Positions 8,859 through 45,173 of a stretch of DNA of 64,000 nt are shown piece by piece. The DNA is from Escherichia phage AV101, in sequence record OQ973471.1. The stretch is one strand, 5' to 3'. The number at the start of each line of letters is the position of its first letter. The stretch's first letter is position 1. A model generated the notes under the pieces. The model was not told the DNA's origin. It ran no database searches and saw nothing but the letters and a program-made list of their open reading frames with translations. The position numbers were made by a program, and so were the translations under genes.

Positions 8859-9065
8859 TTAGCTCGGGCGAAATCTTACAAACTCGCGAGCCAATTCGGC
8901 CTGCTCAGCACTGATAGGAACTCCATGGAAGTCCACCTGACCATTCTTCCAGCCGTGGATGAAACTCGGAGACTCTTCCCCAGATAAGACATACCCCTCA
9001 CGAGATTTCAAGTACCCCCGCAAGATCTCTCCGTCGTCCAGTTTGTTCAGTTCTTCTAACGTCAT
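8859..9065 (-). CDS. Hypothetical small protein
   Basis: 68 aa ORF, ATGA overlap with primase stop, followed by terminator hairpin. Confidence 0.3.
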   Translation of the reverse strand: MTLEELNKLDDGEILRGYLKSREGYVLSGEESPSFIHGWKNGQVDFHGVPISAEQAELAREFVRFRPS

Positions 9066-16639: not shown

Positions 16640-16735
16640 GATGGCGTTCCTTATGTTTGTCGACTTGCAGCTCGATTGAGCCTCCTGACAGGGGTTAAAA
16701 GATAAAGGGCACGTGATATTTAGTGCCCTTCAGCC

Positions 16736-17020
16736 TCATTCGTAGATGAGGTGGTAGGATTCCTCGATGCACTCCAGCCAGCCGTAGACGAACTGTAGAG
16801 GGTCATCCCATGCCGTCTTGGTCGCGACGGTAAAGTTGCCGTCCAGGATCTGCATATCTTGGTACTTGTTGAAAGCGAGTACAGCATCAACCACAATCAG
16901 GCCACCCTGCTCAAGATAACGATTCGGAGTGACGGTCACTTGGTAATGAGGATTCCTGCGATTCCATATCTCCACAGCAATGTCACAGGATTCCTGAATT
17001 TCATCTTTGTTTTCTGACAT
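16736..17020 (-). CDS. Hypothetical protein
   Basis: 94 aa ORF. Confidence 0.4.
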   Translation of the reverse strand: MSENKDEIQESCDIAVEIWNRRNPHYQVTVTPNRYLEQGGLIVVDAVLAFNKYQDMQILDGNFTVATKTAWDDPLQFVYGWLECIEESYHLIYE

Positions 17021-17331
17021 ACGTTTGTCTCAGATGTTCGGTAAAGGATTTACCCAGCTTGCGGAATAGTTTAATACGACCAATGACTTTGACGTAAACA
17101 TCTCCGTGGCAGGGGCGCGGCTTACACCAGCACCCCAATACCTTCCCGTCAAGATCAAGGAGTTCATCCTCAGTGATATCCCCCTTCAATCAGGCGCACA
17201 TACAGGTCGTCCTCAAACAGTTCGATACAGACGCCTCGTCCATGGTCTTTGACCTCAAACGGGTTTCCCCATTTACCAGGCCGACCAATGTAAACGTCAT
17301 ATGGCTCCTTCTTGAAGTGGACGACTTTCAT
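17001..17331 (-). pseudogene. DUF4326-like gene interrupted by +1 frameshift in a G5 run
   Basis: N-terminal ORF 17170..17331 (MKVVHFKKEPYDVYIGRPGKWGNPF) and C-terminal ORF 17001..17189 (..GCWCKPRPCHGD..) join into one ~110 aa protein if one G of the run at 17180-17184 is removed. Confidence 0.5.
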
Positions 17332-17492
17332 TTCAGGATTTGACCTGCAAGTAGATAACAGAACCAGACAGAGAACCCGAGATACCCCAGTGCTTTCAGG
17401 TAGTTTTTCCTTTCGACTTCACGAGAAAACGCAACGATGTCAATGATGCATGCAAAGACCAGGATTGCGAGTTTAATTTGTTCGTAGTTCAT
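17328..17492 (-). CDS. Small two-helix membrane protein (54 aa), below ORF-track cutoff
   Basis: Hand translation MNYEQIKLAILVFACIIDIVAF...LGYLGFSVWFCYLLAG; stop overlaps start of downstream DUF4326 ORF. Confidence 0.35.
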   Translation of the reverse strand: MNYEQIKLAILVFACIIDIVAFSREVERKNYLKALGYLGFSVWFCYLLAGQILK

Positions 17493-17494
17493 GA

Positions 17495-19840
17495 TCAATC
17501 CTTCTTGATAACTTCAGTCAGGCCGTTTCGCAGGCCGTAGCGAATGTTGTGTTGGAAGTATTCCTGGAACTCCTGCTCACGCTGGCTGATGACAAACAGG
17601 TTGTTCCCACCGAACTTATGCTTCAACATCTCAACCGATTCCTGCACCCCGCGCTCGCTCATGTTCTCAAGGATCTCGTCCAACACGAACAGGTTACATT
17701 GTACAGACGCCTTGAGGTTAGCCACATCGCGCAGAGCTAATGTCACAGCCAGGTTCAGACGACTGCGCTGACCAGTAGACAGGGAGAAGATGCTCTGTCC
17801 TTTGCGGCCTGCTGCGCTCATGGTGATCTCAAAGGTATCGTCAACAACGATGTCCAAGAACATGTTGAGGGCTTCAAGATACTCGTTGATCTTGCTATTG
17901 AGGAATGGAAGATACAGGGCGATGATACGCGCCTTGGTCTGGTCATCTTTCAAGAAGAACAGCAGGTGCTGTAAGTCCTGGAGTTCCTGGTCGGCATCCT
18001 CGCGGCGCTGGTATAGATCCTCCAGTTCACCCTCCAACGCAGCGATAGAGTTCTCTAGGTCGGTGGTAGGTGTTGGCTGTACAGCCAGTTTACGCTCCAG
18101 ATCGGCAATAGACGCCACGAGAAGAGCACGACGGGCTTTCAGCTCGGCGATCTTATCATCGACGGCTTTAATCCCGCTGACGGCATTCTCTCGCTTCTGT
18201 TGCAGCGACGCAGTGATGTCTTCAAAACGAACGTTCAGCGCCTTGCGGATGTCAAGGATCTTCTGTTGACATTCACGGTTCAGGGAGTTGCATTCAATCG
18301 TGGCAGCGTCATGGAACCCCTGAATATCACGACGCAGCTGCTTGATGTTGTCAACGATTTCGTCGGCCTTCTTGCGCATTGCATCCAGTTCAGCATCCAA
18401 CACAGCAATGTCAGCAACCAGCTTGTCGTCCTGGGCTTTGTGGTCATCGATCAGGACATTGATATCGGCGGTAACTTTGTCCAGTTGATCTAACTTCGAC
18501 TGTAGTTCCTGGATCTGAGGATTGTACTCACTCTCAATCCGCGCCTTGGTGTCATCAGACACCAGTTGGGTACATGTTGGGCAAGTCCCCATGTCGTGGA
18601 AGCGCTTGATGGCCGACTGATGTCCATCCATTTCGGTCTGGAACTTGATGCGGAAGTTCTCACCCTGCTGGCGGCGCTGAATAGCAGCGTTCAGGGCGTC
18701 CAGGTTTGTGTTGCGCTCGGTGAGCAGGGTGTTCTTGCGTTCGGCCACTGTAAAGGCGCGGTCACGCAAGACCTGAAGATCATGCTCCGCAGTAGACACT
18801 TCGATGCGCTCATAATCATCGGCCTTTTCCTGAGCGACATCCTTCACCGCCTGGATCTTGGCATCAAAGTCTTTCTTGACAGCCTCGATTTCCACCATGG
18901 ATTCATCATGCAGGCGGCTTTCTACCGTCTTCATTTCCTGGCTGGCTTCGAACTCAACCGCAGTGAGGCGGGTGCGCTCTTCGTTCTGGGCGGCGATGTC
19001 AGCATCCAAGGAATTCAGGGCTTCCTGTTGCTGTACAAGGATATCGGCCGATTGCTGTTGGATCAGGGCGTTGGATTGCTCGATCTGCTGAAGCTGCGTC
19101 TTCTTGTTGGTGTGGTCAACAACCTTCAACGCACATTCATTCGCGATCGTGTCCAGCTTTTCGTTCGCTTTCTTGATGGATGCCTTGACATCTTCGTTCA
19201 TCAGGCTGAAGAAGCCCAAGTCCCAGATAGTCTCCACCATGGCGCGGCGGTCGGCTGTGTACATCTCCGTGAACGGAATGAACTTCTCTTTGCCCAGCAC
19301 CAGAGAGTTCTCAAACATCTTCTGGTCCACGCCGATGAGGTTCACGATGTACTTGTTCATGTCGGCTTTGGCTGCTTCGTTATCGATCTGCAACCACTTG
19401 CCGTCCACCATCTGGTAGACTTCAACAAAGTCAGGTTTAATACCACGGCGAACCTTCCATTCGTTACCACGGCAGGCAAACTCCACCTCACCCACACATT
19501 CCTTGCGGCTTTGTGAGTTTACCAGGCCTGCCTTCTTCTCCTTCTTACTGTACGTGTCGTTGTACAGTACGAAAAACAGCAGCCATACCAGCATCGTGGA
19601 TTTACCCGCGCCGTTGTCATCAGACGTAACAAGGGTGGCCGGGTTGCGCTGATAATCAATCTCCATGAACTGATTGCCGATGGAGCGGAAGTTCTTGGCG
19701 CGGCCTTTGCGGAAGGTCAGTTTGTGTGTAACAACGTTACGCACTTCAAATGGGACTTCAACCTCGACCGGGGCGTCGGCTTCCTTCAAAAGATTACCAA
19801 ATTTGGTCAAGATATCTGTGCTCTGAGTCATGTTATGCAT
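17495..19840 (-). CDS. gp46: Recombination endonuclease subunit, Rad50/SbcC-like (T4 gp46)
   Basis: 781 aa; Walker A DDNGAGKST, long coiled coil, zinc hook CPTC, follows gp47. Confidence 0.85.
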   Translation of the reverse strand: MHNMTQSTDILTKFGNLLKEADAPVEVEVPFEVRNVVTHKLTFRKGRAKNFRSIGNQFMEIDYQRNPATLVTSDDNGAGKSTMLVWLLFFVLYNDTYSKKEKKAGLVNSQSRKECVGEVEFACRGNEWKVRRGIKPDFVEVYQMVDGKWLQIDNEAAKADMNKYIVNLIGVDQKMFENSLVLGKEKFIPFTEMYTADRRAMVETIWDLGFFSLMNEDVKASIKKANEKLDTIANECALKVVDHTNKKTQLQQIEQSNALIQQQSADILVQQQEALNSLDADIAAQNEERTRLTAVEFEASQEMKTVESRLHDESMVEIEAVKKDFDAKIQAVKDVAQEKADDYERIEVSTAEHDLQVLRDRAFTVAERKNTLLTERNTNLDALNAAIQRRQQGENFRIKFQTEMDGHQSAIKRFHDMGTCPTCTQLVSDDTKARIESEYNPQIQELQSKLDQLDKVTADINVLIDDHKAQDDKLVADIAVLDAELDAMRKKADEIVDNIKQLRRDIQGFHDAATIECNSLNRECQQKILDIRKALNVRFEDITASLQQKRENAVSGIKAVDDKIAELKARRALLVASIADLERKLAVQPTPTTDLENSIAALEGELEDLYQRREDADQELQDLQHLLFFLKDDQTKARIIALYLPFLNSKINEYLEALNMFLDIVVDDTFEITMSAAGRKGQSIFSLSTGQRSRLNLAVTLALRDVANLKASVQCNLFVLDEILENMSERGVQESVEMLKHKFGGNNLFVISQREQEFQEYFQHNIRYGLRNGLTEVIKKD

Positions 19841-33644: not shown

Positions 33645-35309
33645 TCAGATTTGTGAGGCCAGTTCTGTCACCAGAGGAGCGGCACGGACACGCGCATCTT
33701 CCAGCGTTTGGGTGTTGAAGAACTCGCCATCACGATACACCAGCTGGTGCTGGTTGTCGGCGTCTTGCACCTGATCAAAGGTGATACCGTCAACCAACAC
33801 TAGTTTACCCTGAGAGTCTTTAATGACTTTAAGGAAACCACGCGCAGACTTTTTAGTCCCGCCTTTATCGGTCTTCGGCTCTTTGAAGATCTCACGGAAT
33901 TCACCGTTCACTTTACCAGCCGTGGCTTTCACTGCTGTGCCAGTACTGTCACGGGTGTTCATCTGGTAGGTGTAGGAACCGATACCGAACACCACGTTGA
34001 TGGAAGCGAAGTTCCGGTCAGCCAGACGGCTAAAGATCTGGTCTTCACGCGACAGGGTGATAGAATCACCGTAGATCAGGCCGATGTGCTCATCCAACAG
34101 GAAGTGCCCAGTTTCAGTCTGGGTGCCACCAAAGATCTCCCACAGGCGCTGGATAGAGCCGACCGCTTCTGAACGGCTGATGATATTACGGTCATCTGCC
34201 ATCAGAGAGTTGATCGTGCCTTCGCCTGTGATCAGGTGATAGGTGTTCGTCTCTTCGATGTGGATGACTTCGGTGCTGCTGGACACGCCGCTGATGTTCA
34301 GCGTAGCGCGGTCTTTGAACCCCTCGATACGGTAGCCGCCGACGATGTGCACAGGGTCACCAGAGTCAGGGCGGATCACGACTTTACCATTGCGCGCCAT
34401 GATAATGTCTTTCAGGCGAGGCAGATAGTCGTCGATGACCTGCCAGTAATCCCACGCATCAGACACGATGCTGACGATGCCATCAGGATACACGTCCTGC
34501 ACCAGGCGGCGGAAGGTTTCGAATTCGCCATCCTTCGTGCCCATACACATCACGGCGTGTTCGGTAGCCGCAACAGAACCAGCAACGACATAATCTTCGT
34601 CGATGTCTGCGCCATAATACTCTTCTACGAAGTCCAGGGCAGGGTTGGTGTCGGTGCCTTTGAAGAACACCAGATGACCGGAACCGGAAGACGCGGCGTC
34701 ATGCCACCCGCTCATACCACGGAAGGAGAAGTCGTGGCCTTGGTAGTCGATGAACCAATGGTCCGGTGATACTCCCGTAGCGAGGGCAGCTTTCACCATC
34801 AGTGCCTTGTAATGCAGAGCGATGGTGGCGTTCGTCATCGGCTTCCAGATCTCAGAGCTGAACACAGTCTCCAGATAGTTGGTCAGCCAGTAGAACTCCG
34901 GCAGGGTATTGAACATCACATACACCGGAACACCATACGGACACATGGTGCCTTCAGGCAGCGCACGGACTTCGATAGGCAGGTAGCCGAGGTCATGCAG
35001 GGCTTCAATATGCTCTGTGCCGACGCGGCCTGGACCCAGGACTTTGTTCATGCGACGGGCATACTTCTTCAGCACCTTGGTCTTCGGGCGCTGGAAGAAT
35101 GCTTCGTCAAACAGTTCGTGGAACCAGGTCATGAAGCCCTGGATACCCCAGACCACCACGCCGTTCTTCGGCAGGTGAGAGTTGAAAAGTTTGTTAGAGC
35201 GCGGAGTTCCGTTGGAGAACACCAGCTCACTGCCTTCAGGGAACTGATAGATGTGCCCCGATTTGTAGAAGTCGATCGCATGGATTGGGTCTAAGTGGCG
35301 CATGCTCAT
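33645..35309 (-). CDS. nadV: Nicotinamide phosphoribosyltransferase (NAMPT/NadV)-family enzyme; possibly a nicotinamide ADP-ribose transferase of an NAD+ reconstitution pathway
   Basis: 554 aa; N-terminal DFYKSGH motif and overall NAMPT-like layout; 4-bp overlap with Prs-like gene. Confidence 0.8.
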   Translation of the reverse strand: MSMRHLDPIHAIDFYKSGHIYQFPEGSELVFSNGTPRSNKLFNSHLPKNGVVVWGIQGFMTWFHELFDEAFFQRPKTKVLKKYARRMNKVLGPGRVGTEHIEALHDLGYLPIEVRALPEGTMCPYGVPVYVMFNTLPEFYWLTNYLETVFSSEIWKPMTNATIALHYKALMVKAALATGVSPDHWFIDYQGHDFSFRGMSGWHDAASSGSGHLVFFKGTDTNPALDFVEEYYGADIDEDYVVAGSVAATEHAVMCMGTKDGEFETFRRLVQDVYPDGIVSIVSDAWDYWQVIDDYLPRLKDIIMARNGKVVIRPDSGDPVHIVGGYRIEGFKDRATLNISGVSSSTEVIHIEETNTYHLITGEGTINSLMADDRNIISRSEAVGSIQRLWEIFGGTQTETGHFLLDEHIGLIYGDSITLSREDQIFSRLADRNFASINVVFGIGSYTYQMNTRDSTGTAVKATAGKVNGEFREIFKEPKTDKGGTKKSARGFLKVIKDSQGKLVLVDGITFDQVQDADNQHQLVYRDGEFFNTQTLEDARVRAAPLVTELASQI

Positions 35310-36160
35310 TTTACACGTCCTGTATTTTCAGTTTTGAAAGGAAGCCCGTCGGCGGTGATGTTCTCCCACCAGACAGTGTCGGCATACACAGCATCATAGA
35401 TCCCGTCGAAAACAGAGAGACCTTTGCTGAAGATGCCATGGGTAACGAAGAGCGTCATGTGCTTAGGCTTGTGCTTCTGAAGCTCTTTGCCTAACTCAAC
35501 GAACGTGCGCCCACCGTCGCAGATATCATCGACCACCACCAGATAGCGGTCTTTGATCAGTTCAGGGTTTGTAACACTCACCCCAATGATCTCACCAGTC
35601 TTGGTATCGCGGTTCTTATGGCCGTAGACAACAGGAACACCGTCCAACGATAGGCTGAGGGCTTCGGTCTTCTTAGTCGCGCCGCCGTCAGGAGCTACCA
35701 ACACAGCGTTGTTCCCACGGATGAACCAGCCCAGATACTGACGCACGATGTAATCTTGCGGGACAACATGAACGTTGTTGATCAGAGAAGACACAACATG
35801 GCTGTGAGGATCTTTGATTACCACGCGGTCAAAGTTCATGCTATTGATGAATTCAGCCGCCCACTTCACAGACAGAGGCTCACCGAAGTCACAATGGCGG
35901 TCCTGGCGAGCATACGGGAAGTAAGGGATATACGCATGGAATGTCGTCAGACGGTCCACGTTACTCAGACCACGAACGGCGTTTACCAGAAGCGCCAGCT
36001 CAATGAAGTCGGCTGATGATTTGATGTGAGCATCAATCACCACGTTCTGAACGTGGCCGATAGGGATACCAGACTTTTGGATCTTGATATGTTCCTCACC
36101 ACCTGGGAAGGTGAAGTGTTTGTAGAACACATCTTGGTCGTTCAATTTCAAACGAAACAT
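35306..36160 (-). CDS. prs: Ribose-phosphate pyrophosphokinase (Prs)-family enzyme; possibly an ADP-ribose pyrophosphokinase
   Basis: 284 aa; YFPYARQDR, DGGATKKT and VVVDDICDGGRT motifs of the Prs/PRTase fold. Confidence 0.8.
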   Translation of the reverse strand: MFRLKLNDQDVFYKHFTFPGGEEHIKIQKSGIPIGHVQNVVIDAHIKSSADFIELALLVNAVRGLSNVDRLTTFHAYIPYFPYARQDRHCDFGEPLSVKWAAEFINSMNFDRVVIKDPHSHVVSSLINNVHVVPQDYIVRQYLGWFIRGNNAVLVAPDGGATKKTEALSLSLDGVPVVYGHKNRDTKTGEIIGVSVTNPELIKDRYLVVVDDICDGGRTFVELGKELQKHKPKHMTLFVTHGIFSKGLSVFDGIYDAVYADTVWWENITADGLPFKTENTGRVK

Positions 36161-45091: not shown

Positions 45092-45173
45092 TTTCAGCCT
45101 CGTGTAGAAGAATCATTTCAAATAGGCGGGGAACGCCCCCGCCCACACATTATAGCATCAGGCTGGAGATTGA

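Follow-up and report, generated by a model that had tools for sequence, protein, structure and literature searches.

DUF4326 gene of phage AV101 is split by one extra G

In Escherichia phage AV101 (Agtrevirus), one additional G within a homopolymer disrupts a small accessory gene of the DUF4326 (NrdA.1-like) family that is widely conserved among phages, and we regard a genuine, very recent loss-of-function insertion in the sequenced AV101 stock as the probable cause, in preference to an error in the consensus sequence. The locus lies in a 64,000-nt window of the AV101 genome (OQ973471.1), which is the whole stretch of DNA analyzed here.

The disrupted gene occupies positions 17001 to 17331 on the minus strand and is 331 nt long in AV101, as opposed to 330 nt in its relatives. 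Its N-terminal ORF (17170 to 17331, minus) starts with an ATG at 17331 and stops at a TGA (17172 to 17170), giving a product of 53 aa (full translation MKVVHFKKEPYDVYIGRPGKWGNPFEVKDHGRGVCIELFEDDLYVRLIEGGYH) that begins with MKVVHFKKEPYDVYIGRPGKWGNPF and ends with LIEGGYH. This ORF contains the invariant residues D12, R17, G22, and N23 (YDVYIGRPGKWGNPF motif) and a helix at residues 32-49. The C-terminal ORF (17001 to 17189, minus; 62 aa) opens with a TTG, is in the +1 frame with respect to the N-terminal ORF, and includes GCWCKPRPCHGD. It carries the invariant residues L60, L65, G66, C67, C69, P71, C74, and H75 (LGCWCKPRPCHGD motif), together with strand 64-67 and helices 75-91 and 96-108. When we inspected the sequence upstream of its TTG, no recognizable Shine-Dalgarno sequence was found. 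Both ORFs extend over a run of five G (17180 to 17184, minus; C5 on the plus strand), which is the site of the one-base insertion and is G4 in relatives. Deletion of one G from this run joins both ORFs into a protein of 109 aa. The original prediction had placed both ORFs and the G5 run correctly on the minus strand and had correctly proposed that removing one G would fuse them; the size of about 110 aa that it gave is exactly 109 aa.

The operon around the DUF4326 gene is tightly packed. Upstream, a small membrane-protein gene (17328 to 17498, minus; PHROG 34593), annotated in Shigella phage Ag3 as a two-TM membrane protein, ends in a TGA that overlaps the ATG of the DUF4326 gene (ATGA). Downstream lies a gene for a 94-aa protein of unknown function (16736 to 17020, minus; PHROG 4165). 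Its ATG sits 20 nt within the 3' end of the DUF4326 gene, an overlap annotated identically in 13 relatives, and the 94-aa gene is likely to be translationally coupled to the DUF4326 gene. The GenBank entry of AV101 (OQ973471) lists the truncated 53-aa product as WJJ54070.1, a "hypothetical protein", and leaves the downstream ORF unannotated.

Both halves belong to the DUF4326 family

We compared the fused protein and its two halves with the Pfam profile PF14216 (DUF4326), for which the curated gathering threshold is 25 bits. The fused protein matched profile positions 3-80 of 82 with 82.7 bits (E = 3.1e-23). Each half alone scored 38.7 bits (E of about 1.7e-9), and the halves matched the complementary profile segments 3-46 and 52-80. 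These scores place the DUF4326 match of the split gene far above chance resemblance; the family call of the original prediction and its claim of two motifs in adjacent frames are thereby borne out.

The fused protein has both PF14216 blocks, the N-terminal V-V-H..YDVYIGRPxKWGNPF and the C-terminal LGCWCxPxxCHGD, and in an alignment of 64 sequences it keeps all invariant columns (V4, D12, R17, G22, N23, L60, L65, G66, C67, C69, P71, C74, and H75). BLASTP aligned the repaired protein with T4 NrdA.1 (NP_049846.1) at 41% identity over 85 aa (E = 2e-21). A single continuous DUF4326 polypeptide is not what AV101 encodes, the domain being split over two frames at codon 50/51. Thus, the AV101 locus is a disrupted member of the family, a pseudogene or apparent pseudogene.

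The AV101 gene falls in PHROG 464, whose function is unknown. The family is large, with 1829 matches in the protein collection searched and homologues in 1293 phage records, including T4-like phages, Ackermannviridae, and jumbo phages. Stand-alone DUF4326 proteins are typically single-domain proteins of 82-110 aa, and most of the best 120 of the 1829 homologues measure 82-112 aa.

DUF4326 has been placed by prediction in the rhodanese-phosphatase superfamily and among ADP-ribose-processing enzymes (Iyer, Burroughs, Aravind et al.; PMC9503650, PMC7824862), its enzyme activity on ADP-ribose-derived molecules being an in silico prediction only (PMC9503650, PMC7824862). A sequence search detected no solved structure among its relatives, and a Foldseek search of the DUF4326 model against the PDB returned no match. 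Weak matches to Pfam "DUF488-N3a" were obtained for 16 of 64 family members. The "phage phosphatases" that counter aRES defense were considered as possible DUF4326 proteins and rejected, since they are Macro-domain proteins; the only experimentally characterized phage ADPR-1''-phosphate phosphatase is likewise a Macro-domain protein and not DUF4326.

The extra G is private to AV101

The region has 98.5% identity with Agtrevirus-like phages of the Ackermannviridae, among them RPN242, A221, PC3/PH4, YX22, and LHE287. At this locus, a single intact CDS of 330 nt is annotated in 13/13 relatives (Agtrevirus, Kuttervirus, and unclassified Aglimvirinae), some of which label it "NrdA.1" or "DUF4326 domain-containing protein". 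When aligned at the nucleotide level, the 13 relatives with the full gene all read GAA-GGGG-AT, whereas AV101 reads GAA-GGGGG-AT. Similarly, a 126-nt query centered on the run aligned to 125 bases in each of the 22 phage records that cover the site. The exact G4 pattern was present in eight IMG/VR contigs; the exact G5 pattern had no match in IMG/VR, JGI metagenome contigs, or GTDB genome contigs.

By exact look-up, the truncated 53-aa product occurs in public databases only as WJJ54070.1 of AV101, on one contig, and it was found in no independent assembly from Logan or ENA. The repaired protein, in contrast, shares 100% identity with the proteins of A221 (present on 41 contigs) and vB_CECAV_050. 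Between the repaired gene and that of A221, there are two synonymous differences and none that is non-synonymous. In more distant relatives, synonymous changes also outnumber non-synonymous ones, by 19 to 3 in pSal-SNUABM-02 and by 32 to 9 in SilasIsHot. Because the differences are mostly synonymous, we concluded that intact copies of the DUF4326 gene evolve under purifying selection. No relative examined shares the extra G, and these comparisons indicate that the insertion in AV101 is evolutionarily very recent.

In some Kuttervirus records (Salmonella phages pertopsoe, KE31, and others), the 1-kb region corresponding to 16700-17700 is longer by about 347 bases and has an additional annotated hypothetical gene. 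One record with this insert, of 38.5 kb, is labeled "Enterococcus phage Efm 3-10" and looks mislabeled or contaminated.

The break divides the conserved elements of the protein

In a confident AlphaFold2 model built from the 64-sequence alignment (pLDDT 95.1, pTM 0.86), the part preceding the break comprises strands 2-5 and 13-14 together with helix 32-49; the part following it comprises strand 64-67 and three helices (54-58, 75-91, and 96-108). The break itself, at residues 50/51, falls in a linker that is variable in the alignment and that forms a surface loop between helix 32-49 and helix 54-58 in the model. Invariant residues stand on both sides, with five before the break (V4 to N23) and eight after it (L60 to H75), and neither fragment holds the complete set of conserved elements. 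Because these elements are divided, and because the TTG of the C-terminal ORF has no recognizable Shine-Dalgarno sequence, loss of function is expected. From sequence and model, the DUF4326 protein is most likely inactivated in AV101, although some activity could persist if the fragments complement each other or if +1 slippage on GGG_G occurs at a low level.

We propose the following course of events. The G4 run would have gained one G, as expected from replication slippage. The ribosome would then read LIEGGYH-stop in place of LIEGDITEDELL, the product would be the 53-aa N-terminal fragment, and the C-terminal 59 codons would be stranded in the +1 frame behind a TTG lacking a ribosome-binding site. 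The stop, which comes about 150 nt early, may also reduce the translationally coupled expression of the 94-aa downstream gene. The knockout would be tolerated because the DUF4326 gene is dispensable.

The position of the break could also be read in another way. If both ORFs were translated, the two pieces might assemble non-covalently into an active DUF4326 domain, and a variable surface loop is the type of position at which split proteins sometimes complement each other. This would demand translation from a TTG that has no recognizable ribosome-binding site. No homologue is split at this position among the best 120 of the 1829, nor among the relatives of at least 80% identity listed from the 1293 phage records, and the short homologues that we did see are deletions or replacements. 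Moreover, a private and recent state leaves no time for selection to have shaped such an enzyme. We consider a two-piece enzyme extremely improbable, the least credible of the readings weighed here, and retain inactivation as the expected outcome.

Genuine mutation or consensus error

AV101 was sequenced on the Illumina MiSeq platform (2x250, Nextera XT) and assembled de novo in CLC Genomics Workbench; its genome (OQ973471) is 156,759 bp, and the deposition is reported as assembled genomes only (PMC10844046). The AV101 papers do not mention the frameshift in the DUF4326 gene.

The phage might in truth be G4 with an intact gene, the extra G having arisen in the de novo assembly consensus. Several observations are those that such an error would leave. 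The G5 allele is unique among the public sequences searched, the indel is located in a homopolymer, and the truncated product comes from a single GenBank record with no independent AV101 assembly in Logan or ENA. The repaired gene is perfect, and the absence of non-synonymous differences from A221 gives no sign of time spent as a pseudogene. A private homopolymer indel in an undecayed gene is exactly what a consensus error looks like; it fits a very recent mutation equally well.

To examine the reading frames of the whole window, 80 annotated RPN242 proteins were searched against it by tblastn. About 78 genes common to RPN242 and the window were recovered in a single frame without internal stops, and the indels relative to RPN242 were mostly intergenic or mutually compensating in divergent segments. 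The window contains 34 G/C runs of at least 5 bases, and the 33 runs other than that of the DUF4326 gene break no gene. The assembly is thus not error-prone, as no further frame-breaking indel occurs in these shared genes or runs. At 5-base runs, consensus indel errors are rare on Illumina, the platform (MiSeq 2x250) from which the AV101 data come. Given the clean window and this low rate of indel errors, a genuine mutation is more likely than an artifact. We therefore hold a consensus error to be possible but rather unlikely, and a genuine, very recent loss-of-function insertion in the sequenced stock to be the probable explanation.

An error-ridden assembly was also considered in its own right and ruled out, since the sole other apparent split, at 8908-9065, stems from an extra A in RPN242 itself. 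There, a small ORF on the minus strand (MTLEELNKLDDGEILRGYLKSREGYVLSGEESPSFIHGWKNGQVDFHG) is intact in AV101, and the extra A frameshifts its RPN242 counterpart (segment 10437-10598). The 53-aa CDS annotated in RPN242 is probably a truncated or misframed version of this ORF. Among the other G/C homopolymers, a C5 run at 45136-45140, between the clamp-loader and sliding-clamp genes, has one C more than RPN242. It appears to be intergenic; apart from the G5 run, no other G/C homopolymer in the window differs in length in this way.

The DUF4326 gene is repeatedly lost in Ackermannviridae

The DUF4326 gene has been damaged in other members of the family as well. In LIMEstone1-type Dickeya phages, the membrane-protein gene and the 5' part of DUF4326 are missing, and there is a frameshift in addition; in Dickeya phage Ds3CZ, the gene is intact. 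Klebsiella phage May encodes a 66-aa chimera, in which a frameshifted N-terminus is joined to the C-terminal CWCKPRPCHGD part. In Salmonella phage SP1, an unrelated 102-aa ORF replaces the 5' two-thirds of the gene. All three lesions keep the 3' end that contains the start of the downstream gene. Because the gene has been damaged independently in other Ackermannviridae, we concluded that it is dispensable and repeatedly lost, and its repeated loss elsewhere makes a tolerated knockout in AV101 plausible.

Two further points concern these remnants themselves. The remnant in phage May is labeled "ribonucleoside-diphosphate reductase subunit" in its source, a misannotation inherited from the NrdA.1 name. 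The replacements in LIMEstone1 (segment 1706-1979) and SP1 (segment 385-830), which in both phages take the place of the small membrane-protein gene as well as the 5' part of DUF4326, start alike, with MGRLIRVSK... and MGSLIRVSK..., respectively, which suggests a shared gene-replacement event at a hotspot, followed by further deletion in LIMEstone1.

We wondered whether loss of DUF4326 may be selected and not merely tolerated, in which case the frameshift in AV101 would have been fixed on the isolation host as an escape or adaptive mutation. At least four independent inactivations are found in Ackermannviridae (the AV101 frameshift, the LIMEstone1-type deletion, the May deletion, and the SP1 replacement), and the gene is under purifying selection elsewhere. 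On some hosts, the predicted ADP-ribose-derivative-processing product could be sensed by a defense system. It could also be redundant or counter-productive in a phage with an NARP1-like NAD+ reconstitution pair, such as AV101. We judge selected loss to be improbable.

The pair in question consists of adjacent genes on the minus strand (33645-36160) that encode, according to Pfam, a 554-aa protein of the NAPRTase family and a 284-aa PRPP-synthetase-like protein. Judged by these Pfam matches, the two resemble Namat + Adps of NARP1, a phage pathway for NAD+ reconstitution. In the close relative RPN242, about 1.8 kb is missing, and this NAPRTase/PRPP-synthetase pair is reduced to a fused remnant of 77 aa.

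Recoding at the G5 run is very improbable

If the extra G is real, the full-length protein might still be made by +1 ribosomal frameshifting, and two routes can be drawn. In the first, slippage of tRNA-Gly on GGG_G, while GGA occupies the A site, would restore the wild-type sequence. In the second, the shift would take place at CAC_UGA, after the Shine-Dalgarno-like AGGGGG, and would give a protein of 109 aa in which DIT is replaced by GYH. The expected trans-frame peptides are LIEGDITEDELL or LIEGGYHEDELL.

Some features of the sequence agree with these routes. It is seen directly that +1 is the correct frame, a tRNA on GGG meets GGG again when shifted by +1, no Gly codon is rarer than GGA in the long genes of the phage (9.7%), and both the AGGGGG motif and an in-frame UGA are present. 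However, at GGG_G the Shine-Dalgarno-like motif is not upstream of the shift site but overlaps it, and GGA is no more than uncommon. At the UGA, the P-site codon CAC cannot re-pair with the +1 codon ACU, and the spacer is 4 nt, as against an optimal 3 nt. The local RNA structure was not significant (z = -1.56). Above all, the G5 arrangement is absent in all relatives (13 aligned, 22 records, and 8 IMG/VR contigs), so it is not an evolved, programmed signal, and this lack of conservation makes programmed recoding very unlikely. Functional recoding of any kind is, in our estimate, highly doubtful, and background slippage could give at most traces of full-length protein.

Transcriptional slippage was ruled out as well. 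Transcriptional slippage sites typically comprise 8-9 or more A or T, and a run of just five G is too short. A conserved split gene or recoding site was rejected on the ground that G5 occurs in no relative; either a conserved split gene or a programmed frameshift is therefore excluded as the identity of the AV101 feature. Of the three origins offered in the original prediction (a sequencing or assembly error, an inactivating mutation, or a slippage site), the inactivating mutation is favored, and the slippage site in practice falls away because G5 is private to AV101. The same prediction was to be abandoned if high-quality reads confirmed five G and related phages had the two separate ORFs; no relative was found to have them, and the 13 aligned ones with the full gene all carry G4 and one intact ORF. 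Taken together, the AV101 lesion is an ordinary homopolymer frameshift and involves no new mechanism.

Implications for annotation and phenotype

For annotation, WJJ54070.1 and the unannotated ORF downstream of it should be marked as a single disrupted DUF4326/NrdA.1-like gene, or the sequence corrected should the extra G turn out to be an error. A real mutation would make AV101 a natural knockout for this widespread gene, which has a predicted function only. Comparison of AV101 with the near-identical A221 and vB_CECAV_050, for example on hosts with NAD+-depleting defense, could then offer a cheap first phenotype for DUF4326.

Comparison with known systems

The programmed +1 site of E. coli prfB (RF2) reads AGGGGG-UAU-CUU-UGA-C, with a spacer of 3 nt. 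The AV101 sequence, AGGGGG-AUAU-CAC-UGA-G, was made by the insertion and is superficially like it: after AGGGGG and a short spacer come a sense codon and an in-frame UGA, and the +1 frame is open. The two differ in that prfB has CUU in the P site and a 3-nt spacer, whereas AV101 has CAC, which is not shift-prone, and a 4-nt spacer, and is unconserved. The features that define a prfB-type site, namely a shift-prone P-site codon, a slow A-site codon, and a Shine-Dalgarno-like stimulator 3 nt upstream, are not found together at the AV101 site.

As in LIMEstone1-type phages, May, and SP1, where either the N-terminal motif or gene contiguity is lost, the gene of AV101 is no longer whole. Those lesions, however, are deletions or replacements of 100-300 nt, whereas the lesion in AV101 is a clean single-base insertion with no other damage.

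The closest counterparts are the intact orthologues. The A221 protein (UTQ72617.1) and Shigella phage Ag3 orf00116, annotated "NrdA.1", are 109 aa long, like the repaired protein of AV101. As in AV101, the orthologues of Agtrevirus and other Ackermannviridae lie between the gp46-like nuclease and small membrane-protein genes on one side and the PHROG 4165 gene on the other. Unlike every one of them, AV101 has its frame broken after codon 50 by the extra G. T4 NrdA.1 resembles the AV101 protein in having both conserved motifs, a small size, and a predicted function only, and in being encoded by a large virulent myovirus. Yet T4 nrdA.1 adjoins nrdA, whereas the AV101 gene adjoins gp46/gp47-like recombination nuclease genes and is frameshifted.
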